Below are positions 1,858 to 60,164 of a DNA stretch of 64,000 bases, in pieces. The stretch lies in IMG/VR virus record IMGVR_UViG_3300037321_000115; one strand, 5' to 3'. The stretch is from a virus (lineage: Duplodnaviria > Heunggongvirae > Uroviricota > Caudoviricetes). Under the pieces are notes generated by a model. That model was not told the origin of the DNA, did not search any database, and worked only from the letters and a program-made list of their open reading frames with translations. The position numbers and the translations under genes were made by a program. Position 1 is the stretch's first letter; every line of letters starts with the position of its first letter.

Positions 1858-3954
1858 TTAGGCTTCGCAAGCAGCACAGTCCATCGATTGTACACGCTTA
1901 CGTGTCAACGCTTGTGCAGCAGACATTGAGAAGCTGTAATACAGACTCTTTACACCCATCTCGTGTGCATACAGATACAGTGCGTTGATTTCCTTTACAG
2001 ACATGTCAGGATCTAGCATAAGATTCAAGCTCTGTCCTTGGTCGATGTATTGTTGTCTGATTGCAGCGTGATCAATTACTGCATATGCATTTATCTCCGA
2101 GAACGTCTTGAACACTTCCTTCTCTTCATCAGTCAAAAACGTAAGGTGTTGTACTGATCCGTCGTTTGTCTTAATCGACTCCCACACATCATACGTGTTT
2201 TTGTCTTTTTCACTAAGTAGTTTGTCAAGGTAGGGGTTTTTGATTGTTACTTTAATCTTAGCAAGATCTTTGACGTAACAGTTGGAGAATTCAGGTTCAA
2301 TGGACTGACTGACTTGTCCTAAAATAAACGAACTAGACCGCGTCGGCGCAATTGCCATGGTAGTTGCGTTACGCATTCCATAGCCTTCAAGCAGTGGAGG
2401 CTCGCCCAGCGACACAGCGAGCTCGCGTGAGGCTGCATGCGATCTTTCCTGAAGCGTCTTAGCAATCTCAAGATTCTTTTTGGAGGCTGCCTTCGATTCA
2501 AAAGGAATCATGTTTGATTGAAGATACGAGTGCCAACCAAGAATGCCTACGCCCAATGCACGGTGATTAATTGCAAAGTTTCGTGCACGTTTGAGATACT
2601 CTTGGCCCTCTGTCTTGATGATAAATTCTTCGCATACCGTATCAAGAAATTTAGTCATCACTTCAATTGCATCTGTTTGAGCGAGTTCGTCCCAAAAGAG
2701 TACGTTAATTGAGGAAAGCACACACGTAAACGTCTCATCGACAGAAGATGGTAGGGAAATTTCTGCACAGTTGTGTACTAATACATCATTAGCAAAAAAT
2801 GATTGCGTTTCTGGCACTGTGATGTCGTACACAGGGATTTCTTCTTCGTACGTAATTCTTTCTGTTTTGATTGTTTTGCTCGACGAACCATCAATCAGCA
2901 ATTGATCTTCTTCTGTAAGATCTTGAGCCTCGACCCAACCTCTATTTTGAGTGAATAGCTTGTGGTTGGGCGTACACTCAACAACTTTTCCTGTAACATC
3001 GTCTGTGATTCGAATCATATCTTTAGTGGACCCTGTTTGAGCAGCAGCAGTCACCACTTGAAAACCATGTTCTGTTTTAACCTTTGTATCAGATGGGATA
3101 CCGCCAATAGCCCACAACTTACAGAATGTTTCAATTTCAACGACATCAGGAAGCGTGTTGGAAGGAAGTTGTATTGTAATAACACTGTCCCCACGAAGGC
3201 ACATGTTGCTAGCATGGACACGCATATCCTTGTCTTTATAAACCTGTGGCTTGTTATTGTTTACATTATCGCCAAATAGGATGTATGGATATCCCATCTC
3301 TGATCTACGTTGAAGAACCTTAGCCCAAAGACGACGCTTCTCTGCATCACCTGCCTTGACCTGACGAATAAAATCGTCCGATACAACAATTCCTGTTGTC
3401 AGACCTTGAATCGGATTGCCTTCTGAACCGATATCAAGGAACTCGTCCGCATCTTTGTGATCGATGTCTTGATATGCTGTGAAGAACCCTCTGCGAACAG
3501 ACCCTTGCGATATTACAGACGACAGTGTATCATATAGCTGCATAAAGTGAACAGATCCTGAGGACTCGCCTGAATCCTTAATATGGGAACCACGTGGACG
3601 TACTGCACCGAAGTAACCAGAGCACCCGCCACCGTTTTTCATTAGCATGCCGTTTTCAGCAACACCGTACATAATCGATTCCATGTGATCATCAATGTAT
3701 GATCCAAAGCACGAAACAGGTAAACCACGCGCTTTGCCGTAGTTAGCCCACACAGGCGAAGCCAACGAATAATATCCACGACTCATATATTCGTAGAATT
3801 TATCTGCAAATCCTGGTTCGTTAAGGTATTTTTCTGCAGTGTTTGCAATGTCGCGAATGCGACTTTCAGGTGTTTCCGATTCGCTCAAATATCCTCGTGA
3901 CAAGAATTTGCGCGAGTCTTCGTTTAGCCAATAAAATGGTTCTCGTCTATCCAT
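1858..3954 (-). CDS. nrdA: class I ribonucleotide reductase alpha subunit containing a mini-intein
   Basis: SLASPVW, SCF, GGGCSG, RRG motifs; spliced N-M-C-A-E active site; MAIAPT and C-terminal CAACEA. Confidence 0.95.
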   Translation of the reverse strand: MDRREPFYWLNEDSRKFLSRGYLSESETPESRIRDIANTAEKYLNEPGFADKFYEYMSRGYYSLASPVWANYGKARGLPVSCFGSYIDDHMESIMYGVAENGMLMKNGGGCSGYFGAVRPRGSHIKDSGESSGSVHFMQLYDTLSSVISQGSVRRGFFTAYQDIDHKDADEFLDIGSEGNPIQGLTTGIVVSDDFIRQVKAGDAEKRRLWAKVLQRRSEMGYPYILFGDNVNNNKPQVYKDKDMRVHASNMCLRGDSVITIQLPSNTLPDVVEIETFCKLWAIGGIPSDTKVKTEHGFQVVTAAAQTGSTKDMIRITDDVTGKVVECTPNHKLFTQNRGWVEAQDLTEEDQLLIDGSSSKTIKTERITYEEEIPVYDITVPETQSFFANDVLVHNCAEISLPSSVDETFTCVLSSINVLFWDELAQTDAIEVMTKFLDTVCEEFIIKTEGQEYLKRARNFAINHRALGVGILGWHSYLQSNMIPFESKAASKKNLEIAKTLQERSHAASRELAVSLGEPPLLEGYGMRNATTMAIAPTRSSSFILGQVSQSIEPEFSNCYVKDLAKIKVTIKNPYLDKLLSEKDKNTYDVWESIKTNDGSVQHLTFLTDEEKEVFKTFSEINAYAVIDHAAIRQQYIDQGQSLNLMLDPDMSVKEINALYLYAHEMGVKSLYYSFSMSAAQALTRKRVQSMDCAACEA
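2770..3201 (-). other. contiguous mini-intein (144 aa) in NrdA
   Basis: Begins CLRGDS, has CTPNH block B and VYDITV block F, ends VHN followed by +1 Cys; no endonuclease domain. Confidence 0.92.
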
Positions 3955-9168: not shown

Positions 9169-9687
9169 TCAACCGACAAACAAGCTCCAGACCTGCGTCG
9201 ATAACGTGATTAGAACAGCACCGGCTCCCATCACCCACCACTTCCACTGCTCTAACTTAGACACCCTGCTTTCAAGAGTTCGAATCTCATCGTCTAATTC
9301 GTCTCTGTTTTTTGCTATTGCTGTGTATACCTTTTCAAAAGATATTGCTGTAGCATTTTTGAGAATCTTGACTTCATCGAGAACAGAATTAATATTGTCT
9401 GTGAATGCTTTTTCGTTGGATGAGGACATAGAAGTCATCTGTTGCTTTATCTCGCGAACAGAATTCTCAGACTCACGTCTTCTCAAGTCCGCATCAACTC
9501 TTACAGATTTCAGGTCTTCTTGAATTTTATCGAGACGCGATGTGGCCAATAGAATTTGATCAGACACGCGTTCAACCTTTAACACGTTTTTTTCTATGGA
9601 ACTGAAATAACGCTCAATGTTTTGTAGATTTACACGCAAAACAGCAATATCTGTTTTCAAATCGCCTACTTCTTCTTTGTTGTCCAT
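9169..9687 (-). CDS. coiled-coil protein with C-terminal TM helix (possible holin or lysis accessory)
   Basis: Heptad-rich, ends WKWWVMGAGAVLITLSTQVWSLFVG; next to spanin genes and under a late promoter. Confidence 0.55.
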   Translation of the reverse strand: MDNKEEVGDLKTDIAVLRVNLQNIERYFSSIEKNVLKVERVSDQILLATSRLDKIQEDLKSVRVDADLRRRESENSVREIKQQMTSMSSSNEKAFTDNINSVLDEVKILKNATAISFEKVYTAIAKNRDELDDEIRTLESRVSKLEQWKWWVMGAGAVLITLSTQVWSLFVG

Positions 9688-9755
9688 TGGAATTGGCCCT
9701 CTATTGGTATGTTATACACGCCAAATCAGCAACTGCACAGTCTATTTATATCTTT

Positions 9756-10100
9756 TCATTTGTAGCTTGATTTATACACGATTATTATTTCTTTTTGTTG
9801 TCTTATTAGGGTTTGAAGGTCTGACAGATTCAGCGCAAGTGCCTCATATCCCTCTGACGTCAATGCAAACAGTACCAACTCACCTGATAGTATTTCAGCA
9901 AACTTGGCGTCGACGTTTTCAGGTGTTATGACGACCCACGTAACTGGTTTGAGTCTAAGTTGATCGACGAGAGGGACGATCGGTGCAGGCTTGGATATCT
10001 GCACCGTTCTAACTTCAATCGGCCTGGCTTGTTCAACGTGTTCAGGAACACTGCACGCACCCACTAGAAACATCACAATTACAAGCAAAAAGTTTCTCAT
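9756..10100 (-). CDS. o-spanin (lipoprotein)
   Basis: MRNFLLVIVMFLVGA-C lipobox, Pro-rich segment, YEALALNLSDL; ATGA overlap with i-spanin. Confidence 0.75.
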   Translation of the reverse strand: MRNFLLVIVMFLVGACSVPEHVEQARPIEVRTVQISKPAPIVPLVDQLRLKPVTWVVITPENVDAKFAEILSGELVLFALTSEGYEALALNLSDLQTLIRQQKEIIIVYKSSYK

Positions 10101-23615: not shown

Positions 23616-25001
23616 TTAATCCTCTACCACATTAAGACTGTAACCTACATTTAGTCCCTGACTGACAGATAGTCGCGACACAACACCGTCGTTTGACATA
23701 GATGGAAATACGTGATCCTTACTGACAGTGATTGACTTGCCGCTGTTCATTTTAATCTTGACACAGTCCTTCATCTTAGGATGGTGGACCATCGTGACTA
23801 GCTTTGTACTGTCTTCGCTTTTAATTTTGTCGCCTGGTTTCAGGTCAGATATGCATCTCGACGTTCCGTCACTCATGGTAACTGTTTCTTTAACGTAGAT
23901 ACATTCAGACGTGTTTGTGAGGTCAACGTCGCTCGAATCGTATGCTCCGCGGTTGTACTGACTTGACGATACAATAGGACAATCAAACTCCATTGCTAAA
24001 CCACGTATTTCCTCAGCGATTGACTTGACCAGCGTGTATGAGTTTGCGGCTGCTGCACCCTTCACACGAGAAGATGCACAGATGTTGAGATAATCAATGA
24101 AGATAATATCAGGAACAAACCCCTTCTTTAGTTTCAGCTCATTGAGAAGATGTCTAAAGTGTCCTGCGTGAGCAGACCCTGTAGGGTATTCTTTGACTAC
24201 AAGTTTTCCGGGCGTTCTGCTTTTAACCTTGGCAATTCTTGTATTGAACATTTCTCTGGGCATTTCTCGTAGCTGATCAATTGTGACGTCTAATAGATTA
24301 GCATCAATACGTTCTGCAATTCTCTCCTCAGCCATCTCAGCTGTTATGTAGAGGACGTTCTTGGCATGCATAAGAGAAGCTGCAGCCATGTGACATTTCA
24401 TCAAACTTTTGCCACCACCTGTGGTCGCTAAAATCAACGTCAAGGATTTGCGGGGCAGTCCACCCTTAGTGATTTGGTTCAACAGATCAATGTCAAAAGG
24501 AATTCGCTCTTCTGTGCGATGATAGAAATCATAACGACTGTCTGCATCTTCAATATAATCATGCCCAATGTGACTATCAAAGTTGATTCCAAGCGAATCA
24601 GACAACAGCTTAGGAATAGCACCCTTGTCAAACTCTTTGTCTTGCCCATCAAGAATCAAAATTGCTTTTCTAATTGAATTGAACAGATCCTTGTCTTGGC
24701 AGAACTTCTCTGTCTCGCCTAAAAGCCAATCTTGATTAGTTGCTGCATCAATCTTCAACTCGTCGATGGCTGTATTAACAGCTTTAAACAAATCCTCGTT
24801 GAGATCTTTACGTGCCTCCAGCGTAATCTTGAGAGCCTCAATTGAAGGTGGTTCTTTGTATGTACTGACATATTCAGAGAAAGATGCAAATATCTTTTTG
24901 GTAGCAACATCATCAAAATACTCTTCTTTGATGTATGGGATGACTTTGCGACAAAACTCCCCATTGTAAAGTAGATTAGCAAGAATAGTTTGCTCTATCA
25001 T
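23616..25001 (-). CDS. gp41: replicative helicase N-terminal fragment fused to split-intein IntN
   Basis: Walker A ATTGGGKS, IFIDYLNIC, SQYNR, extein ends DLTNTSE; 95 aa IntN CIYVKE..VSKDHVFP..GLNVG then stop. Confidence 0.93.
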   Translation of the reverse strand: MIEQTILANLLYNGEFCRKVIPYIKEEYFDDVATKKIFASFSEYVSTYKEPPSIEALKITLEARKDLNEDLFKAVNTAIDELKIDAATNQDWLLGETEKFCQDKDLFNSIRKAILILDGQDKEFDKGAIPKLLSDSLGINFDSHIGHDYIEDADSRYDFYHRTEERIPFDIDLLNQITKGGLPRKSLTLILATTGGGKSLMKCHMAAASLMHAKNVLYITAEMAEERIAERIDANLLDVTIDQLREMPREMFNTRIAKVKSRTPGKLVVKEYPTGSAHAGHFRHLLNELKLKKGFVPDIIFIDYLNICASSRVKGAAAANSYTLVKSIAEEIRGLAMEFDCPIVSSSQYNRGAYDSSDVDLTNTSECIYVKETVTMSDGTSRCISDLKPGDKIKSEDSTKLVTMVHHPKMKDCVKIKMNSGKSITVSKDHVFPSMSNDGVVSRLSVSQGLNVGYSLNVVED

Positions 25002-25072: not shown

Positions 25073-25672
25073 TTATTCGTATGTGTCCATGTCCATTTCC
25101 ACATCTGCATCATCTTCTCCGTGGCTGTCGTCCGACTTCTTTTGAGTTGCAGACAGTTTGAACTTGCGCTCTACAAACTCTTTGAAATCCACGTTTTTAA
25201 CAAGTTTTTCAAAAAAAGCATTGTTAGTAACCACATCTGCCTGACGATAGTTCTTCTCGTCTACTTCGCCTGTCTCAGGATCAACAAGATTGTACCAACC
25301 AACCTTCGGTTTCGTGATGAAGCCAGATTCCATTGCAATGTCGAAGATTGCAGTCCACTTTTGTATACCATCCTCATACATTACAGTGAATGGTAGTTTA
25401 GATTTCTCTTTGACGTAACGTGACTTCTCAATGTTGATTGTGAACTTCCATCCTGCAAGCTCAGTTCCGTCTTTCTCTTGTGACTTGCTGATGATGAACA
25501 CAGTATTTGCTGAATACATGATTCCCGTCCCACCACTAACAATGGCCTTGGGATATAAGGAATTGTGTGCAATTACTCCGTTGTCAAGCTCAAAGCAATG
25601 GTCTTCCTCTACAGTTATGTCGTATATTGGAAACGGATCGACTTTTTTAATTCCAGTAAGAGTTCTCATCAT
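25073..25672 (-). CDS. uvsX: RecA-like recombinase C-terminal fragment fused to split-intein IntC
   Basis: 37 aa IntC MMRTLTGIKK..IYDITVEEDHCFELDNGVIAHN, then extein SLYPKAIVSGGTGIMYSANTVFII..KSRYVKEKSK. Confidence 0.93.
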   Translation of the reverse strand: MMRTLTGIKKVDPFPIYDITVEEDHCFELDNGVIAHNSLYPKAIVSGGTGIMYSANTVFIISKSQEKDGTELAGWKFTINIEKSRYVKEKSKLPFTVMYEDGIQKWTAIFDIAMESGFITKPKVGWYNLVDPETGEVDEKNYRQADVVTNNAFFEKLVKNVDFKEFVERKFKLSATQKKSDDSHGEDDADVEMDMDTYE

Positions 25673-25883
25673 TTACCTTTCGTTTTACAATTGTCAAAAT
25701 GCCACCTCTTAAATGCAGAGGGCATTCCTGTTGATTTCTTGTTACAGTGTGGACAAATTGCCACATCATACACTTTAGTTTTTTCTTTGTAGTTTCTATA
25801 GCAATCTTTAATATTAACATCTAATAAGATTTCATCTGCTTCTGATTTACTGACATCAATATCTCGGTATGTGTCTTAATCAT
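25669..25883 (-). pseudogene. frameshifted or truncated remnant of a free-standing homing endonuclease gene
   Basis: Strong SD AAGGAG + ATG at 25883, frameshift within a few codons, then ..ICPHCNKKSTGMPSAFKRWHFDNCKTKGK-stop, a zinc-finger tail typical of phage homing endonucleases. Confidence 0.7.
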
Positions 25884-25887
25884 GAGC

Positions 25888-25928
25888 TTCTCCTTTTATT
25901 AACCATGCTTATTTTTATAAAAGGAGAA
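25888..25928 (-). promoter_or_regulatory. RBS-sequestering hairpin with embedded late-promoter-like motif
   Basis: 12-bp perfect inverted repeat TTCTCCTTTTAT/ATAAAAGGAGAA whose 3' arm contains the SD of the remnant gene; TATAAAAATA overlaps the 5' arm. Confidence 0.7.
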
Positions 25929-25942
25929 ACTTCATGTATGGT

Positions 25943-26815
25943 TTACCTAAATTTGGTACCCATATTCATACTTCCAGCTTCGACCCAGTTTCCGAACACA
26001 TCAAGAAACTTGTGGTCGTTGGTACACCTGACAGTAGAGCCATCATCAAACTGCAATTCGAAAAATTCTTTGTCTTCCGAATCCAATCTTTCAGGTCCAA
26101 GCGTATCAAGCACTTTTTGCATACCGTTCTGAGTATAAACCATGTCACCAACATTTATGTCCTTAATGTTGATAGAACCTCTGTTGGTTTTCACGAGCGT
26201 ATCACCAGCTAAACATTGCTCCAGATATACGTGATTCACTGCAAGGCACGGAATTCCTTTAGTTGTCAGGTATGGCGTGATGATACGAAACAACGACTTC
26301 AAGCTCTTGGCACGTGACATGTCCGCGACAGACTTTTCGTTTTGTGCATCTTCTAGCTCTTTCTTAGATGCAAGGTTGCCGACCGAGTCAATCATGATAA
26401 ACACTTTGTCTTTTTTGCCAATCGCATCTAACTTTTGAACCATATCGAACTTGAGCTCCTCCACATCCTTGACGGGAATGTGAACAACGCGATCAATGTC
26501 GATGTCGATGCTCTCAATGTACTCTGGTGTAATACCAAACTCAGAGTCATATAGCAGCGCAATGCCCTCAGGGTACTTGTCCAAATATGCCTTCATGCAG
26601 TAGAGGCTCAGTAGAGTTTTGAAGCTCTTTGATACACCTGCAACAACAGTCAATCCTGGTAGAAGCCCACCATCAATAGATCCACTAAATGCAATGTTGA
26701 GAATTGGGAGGTCGGTAGGAATTGCTTCCTTTGCATTGAAAAAGGGCGATGAGGATAGAACAGCAGAAGATTTGGTACTCCCCGTGCTTAGCATCTTTTC
26801 AAGTAGTGTACTCAT
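25943..26815 (-). CDS. uvsX: RecA-like recombinase N-terminal fragment fused to split-intein IntN
   Basis: GVSKSFKT Walker A, YDSEFG, IDSVGNLASKKE, extein ends VNHVYLEQ; 90 aa IntN CLAGDT..CTNDHKF then stop. Confidence 0.93.
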   Translation of the reverse strand: MSTLLEKMLSTGSTKSSAVLSSSPFFNAKEAIPTDLPILNIAFSGSIDGGLLPGLTVVAGVSKSFKTLLSLYCMKAYLDKYPEGIALLYDSEFGITPEYIESIDIDIDRVVHIPVKDVEELKFDMVQKLDAIGKKDKVFIMIDSVGNLASKKELEDAQNEKSVADMSRAKSLKSLFRIITPYLTTKGIPCLAVNHVYLEQCLAGDTLVKTNRGSINIKDINVGDMVYTQNGMQKVLDTLGPERLDSEDKEFFELQFDDGSTVRCTNDHKFLDVFGNWVEAGSMNMGTKFR

Positions 26816-39436: not shown

Positions 39437-39683
39437 TGTTGTTCTCCTGTGTAATACGCGCCCTAAAGGTGTGATGATTCTCGACACACTCCGCGTATGC
39501 GGCTTTGTAGTCATTCTTATAACCAACCTGCGTTGCAATCTCTGCGGTTAGCGCGTCACGTTCATCCTCTACCGTTGCGAGTTTGGCACGTAGAGCTGCT
39601 ATGGTATCAGACTGACGACAAATAAGACCGCGCATATCCCCGCCGGGCATGTCTAGAAACTCCACTGCGCTTGTATCAGTCAT
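39429..39683 (-). CDS. hypothetical protein
   Basis: MTDTSAVEF.., coupled to the upstream gene, AGGAGA RBS. Confidence 0.55.
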   Translation of the reverse strand: MTDTSAVEFLDMPGGDMRGLICRQSDTIAALRAKLATVEDERDALTAEIATQVGYKNDYKAAYAECVENHHTFRARITQENNNE

Positions 39684-40627
39684 GGCTTTTCTCCTGCGTC
39701 GATGTAATTTTTAATGGCTTCCCTATCTTCTTCATCAAACCATTCCTTCATAGTCCACGGGTTTTCCTCGTCGTGTCCGTAGTCCGCAGTGTCGTGTTCT
39801 GCTACAGTTTCTTGTAGCATCCCTACCAGGGCATCGGCAGCTTTGACCCGCGCCTCTACTGTTGTGAGTCTGTCACGTAGAGCTTCGTTGTCAGCGCTCA
39901 GTGAAGCGTTTGCCTCACGTTCACCCTGAATAACGCTTGGGGCGATGTAATTGGTACGATCTACATCCCTCAAGTGTTGTACCTGATCAAGCGTAAACTC
40001 GTGCAATGTTTTTGCTGCCCCAGCCTGACGCTTTATGGCAGTATGTAGAGTGTCACGTTCGGCTGCAAGGGCGATCACCGTTACGGATGCACGACCCCGC
40101 CAGTCGTTTATCACGCCCTCGTCAATCTCGTCCCAATCCTTCAGATTTTCTGCCAACTTCTCCACCGCCTCTGTGCTGGTGTCTGGATTAGTCATGTCAG
40201 TCTCCAATCTCGTAGCAGGTGTCGCAAAAGTTTCCTCGGAAAATACTGTCATACGCTTTTCCAAATCCGCAATGCGAAACATTTGCCGGGCAATCATCAT
40301 GTGGGCATCATCTGCAATTTGCTGAAATTCGCCGGGAAAGGGCGTTGAGCCAATGCGCTTTTGCATTACCCGCGCTGCTTCCGCCAGATTTCGTGGTTTT
40401 GTTGGACCTGATTGTGAACGGTCAAAATCTTGACCAAGTGCGGCCAGTTCATTCATTGCCGCGATACGCTTGGAAAATTCAGATGCCCAAAAATTGCCCA
40501 TAATTTTTGTTATGGTTGAGCAGTCCAATCCGTTTTTCTCCATCGTGACCCATTGGTCTCGGCACAGGTCTTTCGTGTCTAGGTTTCCGCAATCTTGATC
40601 AGTCCACCAAACGTCAAAATCTGTCAT
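39680..40627 (-). CDS. mosaic hypothetical protein(s)
   Basis: AAGGAG RBS before MTDFDVW at about 40627; second candidate start MTNPDTSTEAVE at about 40195. Confidence 0.45.
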   Translation of the reverse strand: MTDFDVWWTDQDCGNLDTKDLCRDQWVTMEKNGLDCSTITKIMGNFWASEFSKRIAAMNELAALGQDFDRSQSGPTKPRNLAEAARVMQKRIGSTPFPGEFQQIADDAHMMIARQMFRIADLEKRMTVFSEETFATPATRLETDMTNPDTSTEAVEKLAENLKDWDEIDEGVINDWRGRASVTVIALAAERDTLHTAIKRQAGAAKTLHEFTLDQVQHLRDVDRTNYIAPSVIQGEREANASLSADNEALRDRLTTVEARVKAADALVGMLQETVAEHDTADYGHDEENPWTMKEWFDEEDREAIKNYIDAGEKP

Positions 40628-40661
40628 GTCTTTTCTCCTTTGCTTGCCGCGATAAGAATTT

Positions 40662-40964
40662 TCAAAATGGTGGCGCAGTAGTATGTTTCCAGTGAGTGAC
40701 TCTCGGCGTGTACCACGAGCCTTTTGTGCAAGCATACATATCAAACACCGTTGTCCAATTGACATCCCCACACGTCTCGACGTTCCAATACCCCATCTCC
40801 AAAAGTACATCTTTCGGTGCGGTTGATATGTTCTGCCATTGCAGGACAAGGTCTGCGCGGACGTAGGAAGTCGGGATACTACCGGACCCTTGGTAATTTC
40901 CTCGCCAATAGTCATGCACCATTCCGCTCGCTTCGATCAAGTCGATCCGCTCCGGCGCGCTCAC
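40662..40964 (-). CDS. DUF551-like phage protein
   Basis: MSAPERI, YVRADL, WQNISTAPKD, VTHW....PP. Confidence 0.7.
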   Translation of the reverse strand: MSAPERIDLIEASGMVHDYWRGNYQGSGSIPTSYVRADLVLQWQNISTAPKDVLLEMGYWNVETCGDVNWTTVFDMYACTKGSWYTPRVTHWKHTTAPPF

Positions 40965-42328: not shown

Positions 42329-42841
42329 TCACGTGATCACAGTGCCAAACATATCATACGTCGTGATGTCGTCGAACCCCTCTGACAATTCTGGCTTCTG
42401 ATAGTTTTTCATCATGCTATTTAGAATATGGTCTGGGATAGTCTTACCTGGACGAGACCCTAGACGTCGGTGCCATTCAGCACGTTCATTTTCTGTTTCT
42501 GGAGGTGTAAAACTAACACACTCAACAGAATAACCCACGGATTTCATCTTGTTGATGATTGACTTCCGTTTCTTGATGCCTAGATTTGTCTGGTCCCAGA
42601 TAATCCACTGACGTTCATCAGCAACCGCTTCTTCCAACATCTGATTCATCGAGGCAGTTGCCCCCTTGATATTATTCTCGAACATTTCATTGTACGTTGA
42701 ATTGAAATGAGTAGCAGCATCTTCAATAAACTGATCAGTGCTATATACAAAGTACGAATCCGGATCAGCAGAAATGACATTTTTCACAAATGTTGATTTT
42801 CCACTGGCAGGAACACCCACCATGACATAACATTTTTTCAT
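42329..42841 (-). CDS. polynucleotide-kinase-like P-loop protein (AAA_33/PseT kinase domain)
   Basis: MVGVPASGKST, YSTD..IE, IIWDQTNL...RK, R..RPGK.IP. Confidence 0.8.
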   Translation of the reverse strand: MKKCYVMVGVPASGKSTFVKNVISADPDSYFVYSTDQFIEDAATHFNSTYNEMFENNIKGATASMNQMLEEAVADERQWIIWDQTNLGIKKRKSIINKMKSVGYSVECVSFTPPETENERAEWHRRLGSRPGKTIPDHILNSMMKNYQKPELSEGFDDITTYDMFGTVIT

Positions 42842-43924: not shown

Positions 43925-44473
43925 GTAATTATTTCTAAGATCGAATGTTACCTTGTGGATAGACCAAACACAAAGGAATTCTTCTCCAATGTCACACCAT
44001 ATCCGAACATCTCTTGGATGCCCATCGCGCTCAAATTACTCTGCAAGGACGAATGTTCGTCAATCAAAAGAGCTGATAACGATCTGTGTTGACCTCTTTT
44101 GTTGTAATTGTAATTTTTAAACTGGTCTCCTGTCAGTACATTCTCGTCGCCACGGCCAAATTTACATTTGTTGTCAAGATTGAATTTGGATTTGTAAGAG
44201 TATCGAAGAACGTGGTTTTACCAACTTGGCGTGGCACATTCACTGATGTGGGCCGCTTTCGTCAAACAGTCACAATAATTGAAGTTCTGGTTATGTTGCA
44301 CGGCCGTGCAGCATCTGTCTCCATACCTTCTGCCAGCTATTATCGACATGCCCTGTAAACATTCAGGAATTTCCTTTTCGGATGGTTAAAGACAATTTGT
44401 TAAGCGAGTCTCCTAGACTTGGTTGTCGACCTGACGAGTTACTGGAATGCTCCATCCCGCAATCTGTTTATTC

Positions 44474-44595
44474 TGGTACCCATTACCGGACTCGAACCGG
44501 TACGCCACTAAGGACATGAGATTTTTAGCGATGGTCCCAAACAATTTTAAAACCATCGTAGAAGTCTCAGGCGTCTACCATTCCGCCAAATGGGC
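44474..44595 (-). tRNA. tRNA-Leu (probably TAA) interrupted by a 36 nt insertion in the anticodon loop
   Basis: Leu-type body (GCCCATT/AATGGGT, A73, long variable arm); removing 44526-44561 gives an 86 nt tRNA with loop CTTAAAA. Confidence 0.75.
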
Positions 44596-44632
44596 ATTGT
44601 GTTAATACAATCAAGTACCAAAAAGTGACCTT

Positions 44633-44711
44633 TGGTGCCCAAGGAGGGATTCGAACCCCCATCGATCCAATTACGGTACTACCGTTTAGAAGACGGTTCC
44701 GATACTTGGGC
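44633..44711 (-). tRNA. atypical tRNA-Arg(TCT)-like gene lacking a D arm
   Basis: GCCCAAG/CTTGGGC acceptor, A-CCA, ACCGT-CTTCTAA-ACGGT; about 7 nt in place of the D arm and about 20 nt variable region. Confidence 0.65.
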
Positions 44712-44879
44712 ACATAACGTCACTCTTTTGTACTTGTTCGTGTCTTGTTTCTTAAACTGATATTATGTGTTTTGGTGGTGTGTGTCAACAGTCTTTCTTG
44801 CCGTTAAATTTACTAAATTTTCAATGTTGTATGTCCACCAAGTGATCTAGGAACAATGTGATCACACTCATAATATCCA

Positions 44880-44934
44880 GGTGCAACCTACCGCTCATAA
44901 GGCGGTAGCACTGTCCCCATTGTGCTACAGAAGC
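44880..44934 (-). pseudogene. 5' half of a tRNA (3' half lost)
   Basis: D arm and anticodon arm ACCGC-CTTATGA-GCGGT present; T arm and acceptor 3' strand absent. Confidence 0.45.
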
Positions 44935-45156
44935 ACCAAAAACTAATGCTCGATGAAACTAACATACTACACTTTCACAGAGATATAACCTTTTCCTCGT
45001 CGTCTCTGAAGTTATAAGATCTCTAGACATGAAGAAGGGTTGGCGTGACTGCTTGTCACGCCAACCCTTGATGCTAGATTCGCTCATATTGGGTCGTACG
45101 AAATCACGAGATGCTCTTCTTGTTCTAACGCGTAGCGAATTGTAAAGGGCAATTTG

Positions 45157-45922: not shown

Positions 45923-45973
45923 TTGTTTATTATTACTACAAAGGGTCTGAACCCACGGACGAACAGTGATCAT

Positions 45974-46060
45974 TGGCGGAAGCCTGAGGTCTTGATCCCC
46001 ATACCTTGCGGTACCACCGGTTTTCAAGACCGGGTGACACTCCTGTGCCATTAAGCTTCC
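45974..46060 (-). tRNA. tRNA-Ser(TGA)
   Basis: GGAAGCT acceptor, G73, loop CTTGAAA, long variable arm. Confidence 0.9.
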
Positions 46061-46065
46061 GTATT

Positions 46066-46150
46066 TGGTGGGGCCAGAGAGACTCGAACTCTCATACCTT
46101 GCGGCGTCACGACCTAAACGTGATGTGTCTACCAATTCCACCACGGCCCC
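46066..46150 (-). tRNA. tRNA-Leu(TAG)
   Basis: GGGGCCG acceptor, loop TTTAGGT, long variable arm, CCA. Confidence 0.92.
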
Positions 46151-47890: not shown

Positions 47891-47937
47891 ACGATTATGT
47901 TCTTACTTTTACTACACTATCAATTAGATAGGATCTT

Positions 47938-47975
47938 AACCCATTAGACGAAAGGACCACGATTATAACTTCTTA
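47938..47975. repeat. 38 bp direct repeat (second copy at 48796-48833)
   Basis: AACCCATTAGACGAAAGGACCACGATTATAACTTCTTA occurs identically twice; includes a 5' tRNA fragment and leader. Confidence 0.85.
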
Positions 47976-48042
47976 TTAACACTAATATACTACAAACTAC
48001 AGAACTCGTCAACAGTCTTTCTTGCTTTCCCGTATGCCTTAT

Positions 48043-48119: not shown

Positions 48120-48130
48120 TTGTTTGTGTT

Positions 48131-48203
48131 ATTACTGTAAAGGATTTGAACCTTTCTCTCCACTGACTCCGCAGTAGTGTCCTAACCCATAGACGAACAG
48201 TAA
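48131..48203 (-). pseudogene. degenerate tRNA-like element
   Basis: TTACTGT/ACAGTAA acceptor and T arm intact, 6-nt anticodon loop, no CCA. Confidence 0.5.
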
Positions 48204-48211
48204 TCATTGTT

Positions 48212-48390: not shown

Positions 48391-48513
48391 TGGCTCTTGT
48401 TGCAGGGCTCGAACCTGCGACAACCTGATTACTTTTGATACTTTCAGAATCGAACTGAACAATTTACCTTTAGTATCCACAGTCAGGCGCTCTACCAACT
48501 GAGCTAAACAAGA
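48391..48513 (-). tRNA. tRNA-Asn(GTT) interrupted by a 47 nt insertion within the anticodon
   Basis: Removing 48432-48478 gives an exact 76 nt cloverleaf with CCTGA-CTGTTAA-TCAGG, U1:A72, G73 and CCA. Confidence 0.8.
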
Positions 48514-48668: not shown

Positions 48669-48794
48669 TGGTGAACCATCTAGGATTCGAACCTAGGACA
48701 CGCGGATTACTGTTGACATAGAAGATTCGCACTTCACAGGACTTAAAATCCTCTGTCCAAAGTCCGCTGCTCTAACCAACTGAGCACTGGACTT
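48669..48794 (-). pseudogene. tRNA-Lys(TTT) interrupted by a 49 nt insertion, 5' acceptor strand damaged
   Basis: Removing 48710-48758 gives GCGGA-CTTTTAA-TCCGC; D and T arms and A-CCA intact; 5' strand does not pair. Confidence 0.7.
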
Positions 48795-48883
48795 AAACCC
48801 ATTAGACGAAAGGACCACGATTATAACTTCTTAATATAATGTTCTGTGTTAAACTTTTCGTGTCAATATATATTATTGAATTT

Positions 48884-58784: not shown

Positions 58785-58916
58785 GGTGGATTCCTTTCAT
58801 TGTTAAAACTTCGTATGTACAAGTGAAGTTACATTTTATATAAATAAGGTTATAGGCAATCGCGATACTACCAATATCCATTGCCACTAGTCTTATTCAA
58901 AGGTTTCAACCAGCAC

Positions 58917-60164
58917 ATGTCTATTTATAAAGCCTACAAATACAGGATCTATCCAACTTTTGATCAGAGGCGAACTCTTGATCGTAATTTTGGTGCAGTT
59001 AGATTCGTATGGAACCAGTTGGTTGCAAACTTCAATTCCTACGGTACGGATGATCATGTGAAAAATATGTCGGAAGCTCATGTCAAGTCAGAACACGTTT
59101 GGCTCAAGGAATGCATTTCCTTTTGCATTCAACAGAAAACGCGAGACTTTCACGAAACTACCAAACAGTTCTTCAACAAGAAACGCAAGACGAAGTCTGG
59201 TAGGCCAAACTTCAAGAAAAAGGGGGTCTCGAGGGACTCGATGAGAATCCCTGGTCAGGCACTGGCATATAACAAAGCGGTAGACTTCGAAGCAGGTACA
59301 ATCAAAATTACGAAAATGACGCCTATTAAAGTTGTCTATCATCGCGAGTTCAAGGGCGAACTAAGAAGTGTCACACTATCCAAGACCAAAACTAACGAAT
59401 ACTACGTATCGATCCTTGTAAAAGAAGAAATGCAAGAAAAACCTAAGACAGGCAAGGATATTGGCATTGATCTCGGTATCAATCACCTTGCAATCCTGTC
59501 TGACGGCACCAAATTTACTAACCTAAAATATTTTCGCGAAACTCAAGCGAAACTGAAGAAGATGCAACAACATCTTGCAAGAAAAACTAAAGGCAGCAAC
59601 AGATACAACCAGGCTCGGCTAAAAGTTGCCAAAATACACGAGAAAATAGCCAGACAACGAAACTGGTATTATCACCAAGTTAGCAACTATCTTGTTACCA
59701 ATTATGACAGCATCTTTGTCGAAGACCTTGCAGTCAAAAACATGGTTAAGAATAGGAAACTGAGCAAAGCAATCGCTGATGTCGCGTGGTCGACTTTAGT
59801 TGGAATGATGGCATACAAGGCGAACTGGTACGGTAAAGAAGTTTGCAAAGTCGGAAGATTCTTCGCCTCAAGCAAGACTTGCTCGTGTTGTGGTCACAAG
59901 CTAGACAAACTTGATCTTGGAACAAGAGATTGGACTTGTCCTAGTTGTCATGTTGTGCACGATAGAGACATAAATGCTGCCAAAAACATTTACAAAGAAG
60001 GCATGAAGAATTTTCATGGTCTACTGTCGGAGGATTTGCCCGACATCAACAATCGTGGAGAGGATATAAGACCAGAATGGTTCCTGCAAAGGAATCGTTT
60101 GGCAAACCTCAACGAAGCGACTAGCAAACCTGTAGAGTTCGTCGAACTTTATGGACATGCATAA
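58917..60164 (+). mobile_element. tnpB: IS200/IS605-family TnpB RNA-guided nuclease, no TnpA partner (IS1341-like)
   Basis: AYKYRIYPT, FGAVRFVWN, GIDLG (RuvC-I), VEDL (RuvC-II), SSKTCSCCG..CPSC..HDRDINAAKNI (zinc finger and RuvC-III). Confidence 0.93.

Follow-up and report, generated by a model that had tools for sequence, protein, structure and literature searches.

How can a tRNA gene that is interrupted within its own anticodon still give rise to a tRNA, and which codons would such a tRNA read? This question is raised by the final gene of a tRNA array in a T4-like phage, a tRNA-Leu gene that is split in its anticodon by a 36-nt insert able to fold as a hairpin. To our knowledge, only self-splicing introns are thought to occur in the tRNA genes of bacteria and their viruses. 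A hairpin of 36 nt is unable to splice itself, yet both the hairpin and the exons around it are kept by selection in several phage lineages. The insert is probably a small intron that proteins excise, a route that has so far been demonstrated neither in bacteria nor in their viruses. The interruption was noticed in a first-pass annotation made from the letters of the DNA, and it was confirmed by the Rfam tRNA model, by ARAGORN in intron mode and by direct reading of the sequence (Table 1).

The DNA analysed, hereafter the window, is a stretch of 64 kb from a contig of ~208 kb; one of its proteins is on record from a 208-kb contig. The phage is T4-like and encodes gp32, gp59, UvsX, topoisomerase II subunits, ribonucleotide reductase, thymidylate synthase and DnaB, and its topoisomerase is at most 47% identical to that of any cultured phage. 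Also encoded in the window are a heme oxygenase, a bilin reductase, an RlaP-type nucleotidyltransferase, a TilS-like PP-loop protein and TnpB (58881-60164). Several genes contain inteins, with Hint domains at 1858-3954, 23616-25001 and 25073-26815 that split the ribonucleotide reductase large subunit, the DnaB-like helicase and UvsX. These inteins and TnpB together point to a heavy traffic of selfish elements. A 411-aa ORF at 39680-40915 is an orphan, and PHROG and Pfam scans of the small ORFs around the tRNA array gave nothing.

On the minus strand, the array itself spans ~48.96 kb to 44.47 kb; two further tRNAs lie near 36.8 kb. The sole Leu gene of the window besides the split one is a Leu(UAG) gene at 46066-46150; the earlier statement that the window holds no uninterrupted Leu(UAA) gene was thus borne out, both by ARAGORN and by Rfam. 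Several other members of the array are damaged or unusual. For instance, the Lys gene is devoid of its 5′ acceptor strand, a hybrid at 45925-45850 (minus strand) joins an Arg 5′ half to a Met-like 3′ half, and an Asn-like class II gene at 48960-48882 (minus strand) has its anticodon arm deleted relative to the intact copy in contig L003. A 48-nt tRNA 5′ fragment is duplicated at 92% identity (47931-47978 and 48789-48836), and at 48130-48204 (minus strand) lies a tRNA to which ARAGORN assigns no type, with a 6-nt loop and an 'anticodon' of two bases (ga); a fragment at 45942-45975 is related to it.

Table 1. Interrupted tRNA genes of the array and the parts of the split tRNA-Leu gene, in window coordinates
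Feature	Position	Strand	Basis
Whole interrupted tRNA-Leu, 122 nt, CCA encoded, discriminator A73, long variable arm	44474..44595	-	Rfam RF00005, 42.5 bits; ARAGORN intron mode; fold
5′ exon, tRNA positions 1-34, ending with anticodon-stem TGAGA and loop C32 U33 U34	44562..44595	-	Sequence; alignment with uninterrupted genes
36-nt insert: CTA, 7-nt arm, 16-nt loop, 7-nt arm, CTA	44526..44561	-	Sequence; ARAGORN; family members; covariance model R1, 71.5 bits
Hairpin 5′ arm CGATGGT	44552..44558	-	Pairs with 44529-44535
Hairpin loop, 16 nt	44536..44551	-	MFE structure
Hairpin 3′ arm ACCATCG	44529..44535	-	MFE structure; pairing changes across family
3′ exon: A35 A36 A37 A38, TCTCA, variable arm, T arm, acceptor strand, ACCA	44474..44525	-	Sequence; alignment
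Split tRNA-Asn(GUU), 47-nt insert after position 35	48391-48513	-	ARAGORN intron mode
Split tRNA-Lys(UUU), 49-nt insert after position 35	48680-48785	-	ARAGORN intron mode

Apart from its insert, the gene has the features of a bacterial class II tRNA-Leu, namely a long variable arm, a 3-bp D stem, A73 and an intact cloverleaf. Its 7-bp acceptor stem includes a G1-U72 pair, the anticodon stem is TGAGA/TCTCA and the T arm is standard; in effect, every helix of the exons is intact. The Rfam tRNA model matches the minus strand at 44477-44595 (E 1e-7) and leaves 38 nt of the anticodon loop unaligned. A default run of ARAGORN missed the gene, and its intron mode returned a 122-nt gene, c[44474,44595], with a 36-nt intron, but placed this intron at 31/32 and typed the tRNA as Phe(AAA). 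When the 36 nt that follow position 34 are taken out, the same program reports Leu(taa). Among cultured phages, the nearest match to the 3′ exon is the uninterrupted tRNA-Leu(taa) of Rhizobium phage RHph_TM30 (87% over 55 nt).

Folding of the whole gene with RNAfold yields a cloverleaf with an elongated, partly zipped anticodon arm, with an MFE of -43 kcal/mol and z = -3.05, and none of 200 shuffled sequences was as good. The anticodon arm passes into the hairpin through a 6-by-7 internal loop in which CUU^CUA faces CUA^AAAA, where ^ marks the splice points. In the family of inserts with TACG/CGCTA ends that is described below, both of these points lie 3 unpaired nt from the hairpin base. The 7 bp of the insert hairpin can be extended to 13 bp by means of three U-G and three A-U pairs, closed by an AUUG tetraloop; in the window copy, this zip-up of the loop is possible in the tRNA-sense RNA only.

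The anticodon of the product depends on the exact point at which the insert interrupts the loop. Removal of 36 nt after the third base of the loop gives UAA, after the fourth UCA, after the fifth to seventh UCU, and after none, one or two bases AAA. The first-pass annotation had derived the UAA and UCA outcomes, for removal after position 34 and one base later, and its arithmetic was correct on recomputation. The alignment that it had proposed, with uninterrupted genes of other phages, gives a clear answer. In L135 and its relatives, an 84-nt uninterrupted Leu(UAA) gene reads CTTAAAA. Compared with the split gene of L223, its 5′ exon is identical (34/34) and its 3′ exon 96% identical, with a clean gap between T34 and A35; the two contigs otherwise share just a distantly similar tRNA. 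Deletion of CTACG...CGCTA restores CTTAAAA, and no other deletion of 36-39 nt does so. Thus, the insertion point at 34/35 and the anticodon UAA are fixed because uninterrupted genes with the same exons read CTTAAAA. The candidate junction sequences are GAGACTT+AAAATCTCA for the 34/35 register, which gives Leu(UAA), and GAGACTTC+AAATCTCA for the alternative register. The CTA at either end of the insert was also considered as a target-site duplication, a reading that was rejected since the uninterrupted genes have no CTA there.

Relatives of the window phage are provided by sister contigs, among them L003 and L201-L205, which were traced via the bilin reductase (93% identical) and via an odd tRNA-like gene that is discussed below. 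In these contigs an uninterrupted Leu(taa) gene lies just downstream of the odd tRNA-like gene, which is the place that the split gene occupies in the window. Further downstream, L202 (1998-2073), L204 (1986-2061) and L201 hold a 76-nt tRNA that is typed by ARAGORN as CUA (amber suppressor). The anticodon stem of this tRNA includes no more than 3 Watson-Crick pairs, the loop permits a 9-nt reading, CUUCUAAAA, and no gene of the window was recognized as a counterpart.

The first-pass annotation had reckoned with an insert that might not be conserved, as in a plain pseudogene. It is conserved: the insert belongs to a family that is found at the identical site in other phage tRNA-Leu genes. Four further sequence types from uncultured phage contigs (L208/L219, L222, L213/L223 and L214/L216/L218/L226) have the same boundaries, CTT^[C/T]TACG ... 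CGCTA^AAAA. Viral contigs were scanned with a pattern made of exon features only (the end of the D loop, CTT, AAAA and the T arm, allowing for 18-45 additional bases), and all six of the loci obtained are true tRNA-Leu genes in which 32-45 nt are inserted at CTT^AAAA. One of them, L208, has a 36-nt insert that ends TTACG...CGCTA and has the stem and loop lengths of the window copy. The pattern for metagenome contigs was built on the TACG/CGCTA insert ends, and the conservation of these ends is therefore partly imposed by the search. Of its 15 matches, seven arose by chance in coding sequence; the other eight, which represent four sequence types, are tRNA-Leu genes whose inserts measure 36, 36, 37 and 39 nt.

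Inserts with other ends are also found at this site, in L206, L207, L209/L211, L210 and L285, the last of only 20 nt. What all Leu inserts have in common is their site and not their sequence, and no single sequence rule for cleavage emerges. Among tRNA types the position of the insert varies, being 33/34, 34/35 or 35/36. Contigs with a split Leu gene hold other split tRNA genes as well, at 2200-2314 of L214 (the same gene in L216, L218 and L226) and at 9679-9805, 9495-9620 and 3336-3474 of L206; one example of such genes is a tRNA(CAU) with a hairpin insert of ~42 nt before C34.

Both the exons and the hairpin show the marks of a conserved RNA structure. In an alignment of eight genes (A1), six of them split and two unsplit, 98.7% of 226 pair cells are standard and 14 of the 30 pairs have changed on both sides, which none of 500 shuffles reached; slid registers come nowhere near the real pairing values. 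Across the family, 97.6% of the cells of the hairpin helix are paired and three of its seven pairs show compensatory changes, all three among the five pairs that the search pattern leaves unfixed. The sequence of the hairpin loop, by contrast with its helix, shows no conservation. L213 and L223 have identical 39-nt inserts and hence share one insertion event. Between their exons there are three differences, each of which lies in the D stem and keeps its pair intact (C11-G24 to U-A, and G10-C25 to G-U). This amounts to purifying selection on the tRNA fold after the arrival of the insert.

The family is restricted to phage tRNA-Leu genes. A covariance model of the anticodon arm and insert (R1) recovers one copy from the window and, in ~2.9 Mb of fetched loci, no convincing match other than in tRNA-Leu genes; its weak matches in L185 and L161 lie outside tRNA genes and look like chance. 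A dispersed palindromic repeat, whether REP, MITE or IS200/IS605-derived, was rejected on this distribution. In 185,579 cellular genomes, none of 58 pattern matches is a hairpin-split tRNA-Leu, as against all six matches of a stricter pattern in viral contigs; the cellular ones comprise normal Leu genes whose variable arm contains AAAA, 5′ fragments that adjoin a whole gene, and coding sequence. No cultured phage with the insert was found by megablast of 10 kb against INPHARED or when three split genes were searched by blastn. Scans of viral and metagenome contigs with exact patterns of the window gene gave zero orthologues, bar one spurious match in coding sequence (L001).

Two alternative readings of the insert bear on its register and on its origin. 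If the intron were removed one base later, at 35/36 as for the Asn and Lys inserts, the product would be an opal suppressor with the anticodon UCA that inserts Leu at UGA, a capacity suggested in the first-pass annotation. The arithmetic is right, four of the five family types start with C and would hence give UCA, and the CUA tRNA of the sister contigs indicates that unusual decoders occur in the lineage. Nevertheless, at 35/36 the outcome would be UCA, UUA or UAA depending on the first intron base: L208/L219 starts with T and would give UUA, as would L206, L207 and L209, with UAA for L210 and UCA for L285. In contrast, the 34/35 register gives UAA in every split Leu gene, and it is the only one that yields one anticodon for all. 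The uninterrupted genes with the same exons read UAA, and the Leu body lies at the syntenic place of the Leu(UAA) gene of the sister phages. In the window, moreover, TGA is the stop of 25 of the 70 crude gene calls, long ORFs are intact under the standard code and no in-frame recoding of TGA is apparent. Because of the uniformity of the 34/35 register, the inconsistency of the other, and the frequent use of TGA as a stop with long ORFs intact, the suppressor is hardly credible, and the gene is most likely to be a Leu(UAA). It is also highly improbable that the insert goes back to a group I intron at U34/A35, reduced to a stump by deletion of its core. The insertion site and the U at -1 are indeed those of the tRNA-Leu(UAA) introns of cyanobacteria and plastids, and the phage has cyanophage-type genes, the heme oxygenase and bilin reductase. 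Group I introns, however, measure ~200 nt or more and have a catalytic core (P3-P9) and an obligatory terminal G, whereas the insert of 36 nt has no such core and ends in A; its boundaries cannot slide without changing the loop, and its 3′ end is ...CGCTA, so there is no terminal G. Rfam searches at E up to 1 over 44400-45000 gave only tRNA, RF00028 is absent from 13 related loci, and a full-length group I intron occupies the site in none of the fetched phage loci. Nor would a covarying hairpin of constant length across divergent phages be expected of a stump. The insert had been described as a minimal intron or intron relic; its conserved, covarying family and intact exons agree with the former, and its terminal A, its lack of a core and of an Rfam match, and the selection on its hairpin speak against a relic of a group I intron.

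The other two alternatives concern whether the insert leaves the RNA at all. It could be a selfish or protective insertion at the DNA level that is never removed from the RNA, so that the tRNA-Leu would be non-functional and heading to decay. Decayed tRNA genes are tolerated in the same array (the Lys gene, the Arg/Met hybrid and the Asn-like gene), and the prior for a pseudogene is raised because of this. In addition, nuclease genes are optional in such arrays: a weakly PD-(D/E)xK-like ORF next to Leu varies among the sister contigs from intact through decayed to absent, and a SegE-like GIY-YIG gene is present in L226. No splicing machinery was identified among the ~50 ORFs scanned. This reading is nonetheless unlikely given flawless, covarying exons, which in L213 and L223 have changed only in ways that preserve D-stem pairs, and given that the hairpin itself covaries; furthermore, a pattern search of the complete 359-kb genome to which L206 belongs gave the split gene as the sole candidate for a Leu(UAA). 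Alternatively, the hairpin could be retained in a mature RNA that is tRNA-like and non-decoding, and that acts as a decoy for anticodon nucleases or as an RNA chargeable by LeuRS. Selection on the tRNA body and on the hairpin would fit a structured RNA that is used as such, bacterial LeuRS recognizes A73 and tertiary elements and not the anticodon, and IMG/VR contains many tRNA-Leu-like scaffolds in which a variable sequence of 30-80 nt replaces the anticodon region. This possibility is distinctly unlikely, as uninterrupted genes that share these exons encode ordinary Leu(UAA) tRNAs, for which decoding is the simplest shared function, and the loop of the hairpin is not conserved. Besides, the Asn and Lys genes of the array carry inserts, yet their synthetases need the anticodon.

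The reading preferred here, with confidence that is about evenly balanced, is that the window gene is a tRNA-Leu(UAA) with a protein-spliced hairpin mini-intron exactly between U34 and A35. This splicing is favored by the need for such a tRNA, as TTA and TTG make up 391 of the 1235 Leu codons of the window (32%), which has no other Leu(UAA) gene. A more general proposal, advanced tentatively and with slightly less than even confidence, is that in phage-infected bacteria there is a protein-catalysed form of tRNA splicing that involves neither a ribozyme nor a bulge-helix-bulge (BHB) motif, in which mini-introns of tRNA-Leu(UAA) at U34^A35 would be cut on both strands of the internal loop and the tRNA religated, and that these introns may persist as a shield of the gene against homing nucleases or of the RNA against anticodon nucleases.

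From the sequences and their predicted folds, we infer removal at the level of RNA, the enzymes and the chemistry of the ends along the following lines. The array would be transcribed, and the precursor would fold as a normal cloverleaf whose anticodon arm runs into the intron hairpin. A protein endonuclease would then cut both strands of the internal loop, each at 3 nt from the hairpin base, while the body of the tRNA (acceptor, D and T arms) would hold the halves together. These would be rejoined by an RNA ligase, either of the phage Rnl type or the host RtcB, with end-healing by a kinase if needed, and the product would have a CUUAAAA loop that reads UUA and UUG. The insert might persist by splitting a conserved target of homing nucleases, or by masking the anticodon loop from anticodon nucleases of the host. 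Since homing-type nucleases are optional residents of the arrays, target-splitting would be a reasonable selective rationale. In L003 (13811-14563) and L205 (5909-6661), the odd tRNA-like gene and Leu(taa) are separated by a 251-aa ORF that is decayed in L201 and L204 and absent from L202. It shows weak, sub-threshold matches to PD-(D/E)xK families (REase_MTES_1575 and DUF559), and its presence, decay or absence among near-identical contigs suggests that it may be a free-standing homing nuclease.

We know of no bacterial or phage pathway that removes such an insert. A ligase is plausibly at hand, in that an RNA_ligase gene (PF09414) is found in two contigs of the lineage of the window phage and a stand-alone PNK-like kinase is encoded in the window at 42329-42841. 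As a discriminating gene the ligase was discarded, as it is found in three of five intron-bearing contigs, both complete genomes among them, and in three of five controls with an unsplit Leu gene. RlaP, whose gene adjoins the array here and in the syntenic L226, was discarded as a splicing factor as well, being present in none of the five other intron-bearing contigs versus three of the five controls. RtcB is absent from all five of the other intron-bearing contigs, and Pfam gave no candidate endonuclease, including EndA/Sen, in ~50 ORFs of the window, which covers 64 kb of the ~208-kb contig. Known nucleases also fit poorly. RNase III leaves a 2-nt 3′ overhang, versus the 1-nt 5′ overhang that the needed cuts would leave in the zipped-up helix. 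RNase P and RNase Z were rejected on the ground that the cuts lie 3 nt off the helix, not at its base or one base beyond, and hammerhead or other small ribozymes have no Rfam match.

Short, non-catalytic introns that extend the anticodon arm are a feature of archaeal and eukaryal tRNA genes, where they are spliced by proteins (EndA/Sen with RtcB or Trl1). The likeness extends to removal by an endonuclease and a ligase, which for the insert is a working model. Unlike those introns, this insert lies at 34/35 instead of 37/38, in a bacteriophage, with no EndA-like gene seen and no 3-4-3 BHB. In effect, a BHB intron was excluded since the two 3-nt bulges and the 4-bp helix are missing and the splice sites are opposite each other in the 6-by-7 internal loop. 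Another related system is the repair by T4 Pnkp and Rnl1 of tRNA-Lys cut by PrrC. It, too, involves a break in the anticodon loop, an infection of the T4 type, and a kinase and ligase, of which the lineage studied here has a PNK-like kinase and an Rnl-family ligase. However, T4 mends a single cut that is inflicted by the host, whereas here two programmed cuts would remove 36 nt.

The only published phage tRNA introns that were found are those of the Lak megaphages, and tRNA splicing goes unmentioned in a 2026 review of jumbo phages. The Lak introns were termed 'enigmatic' by their authors, who stated that none had previously been described in a phage tRNA (Devoto et al. 2019, PMC6784885). The genes concerned are those for Tyr, Phe, Gly and Thr, in phages that have a Prevotella host and an alternative genetic code; an example in Table S6 has ~93 nt, and one intron possibly encodes a tRNA (PMC6784885). 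They are inserts in the anticodon loop, conserved among relatives and optional between genomes, with excision points that were deduced from alleles with and without the insert (PMC6784885). All of this applies to the family described here as well, whose exons are otherwise intact. In contrast to the Lak introns, the present insert is a plain 36-nt hairpin in a tRNA-Leu(UAA) of a T4-like phage that uses the standard code.

If the insert is indeed removed, this would mean that a route of tRNA splicing by endonuclease and ligase exists in the bacterial world, and it would provide a link to the long-known and puzzling abundance of RNA ligases and kinases in large phages. Moreover, tRNA finders run in bacterial mode miss such genes. 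Inventories of phage tRNAs, and the arguments on codon usage that are built on them, are biased as a consequence, since ARAGORN by default missed the split Leu gene and in intron mode called it Phe(AAA).

The inserts in the Asn and Lys genes of the array, which the first-pass annotation had placed after position 35, are real. Like the Leu insert, they belong to the same array, are interruptions of the same kind and have a closing stem each. They differ in their length of 47-49 nt, in their position, in their ends, which are GG at the start and AG at the end, and in an inner hairpin that resembles a T arm, which in the Asn insert is TTCAG TTCGATT CTGAA. With the Leu insert they share only an 8-mer, AAATTGTT, found in the Asn insert; its seven occurrences in the window versus 7.4 expected are at chance level and do not show kinship. 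An uninterrupted Asn gene is present in L002.

The odd tRNA-like gene that served to trace the sister contigs has 79 nt (44633-44711, minus strand), lies 37 nt upstream of the split Leu gene and scores 41.9 bits with the Rfam tRNA model. Of the usual tRNA parts, the acceptor stem, T arm, A73 and CCA are present and the D arm is missing; its loop is CUUCUAA and it has an extra region of 20 nt. It is kept in L003 and L201-L205, with compensatory changes at three pairs of the acceptor stem and one of the anticodon-like stem. In RHph_TM30 the tRNA-Leu(taa) gene (locus L286, 140555-143606) is directly downstream of a TROVE-domain (Ro60-like) gene. Proteins of the Ro type bind tRNA-like Y RNAs, and this neighbor may thus bear on the odd tRNA-like gene.

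The IMG/VR scaffolds that resemble tRNA-Leu fall into two classes, and no published description of either was found. The first is widespread and comprises L084, L086, L090, L097, L099, L102, L116, L121 and ~40 more, in which the AGTCAGG/CCTGACT acceptor stem, the D arm and the T arm are constant, CCA is absent, and a hypervariable segment of 37-80 nt replaces the anticodon and variable arms. The second class, from one metagenome project, has a uniform span of 82 nt and the acceptor stem TGCGACA.
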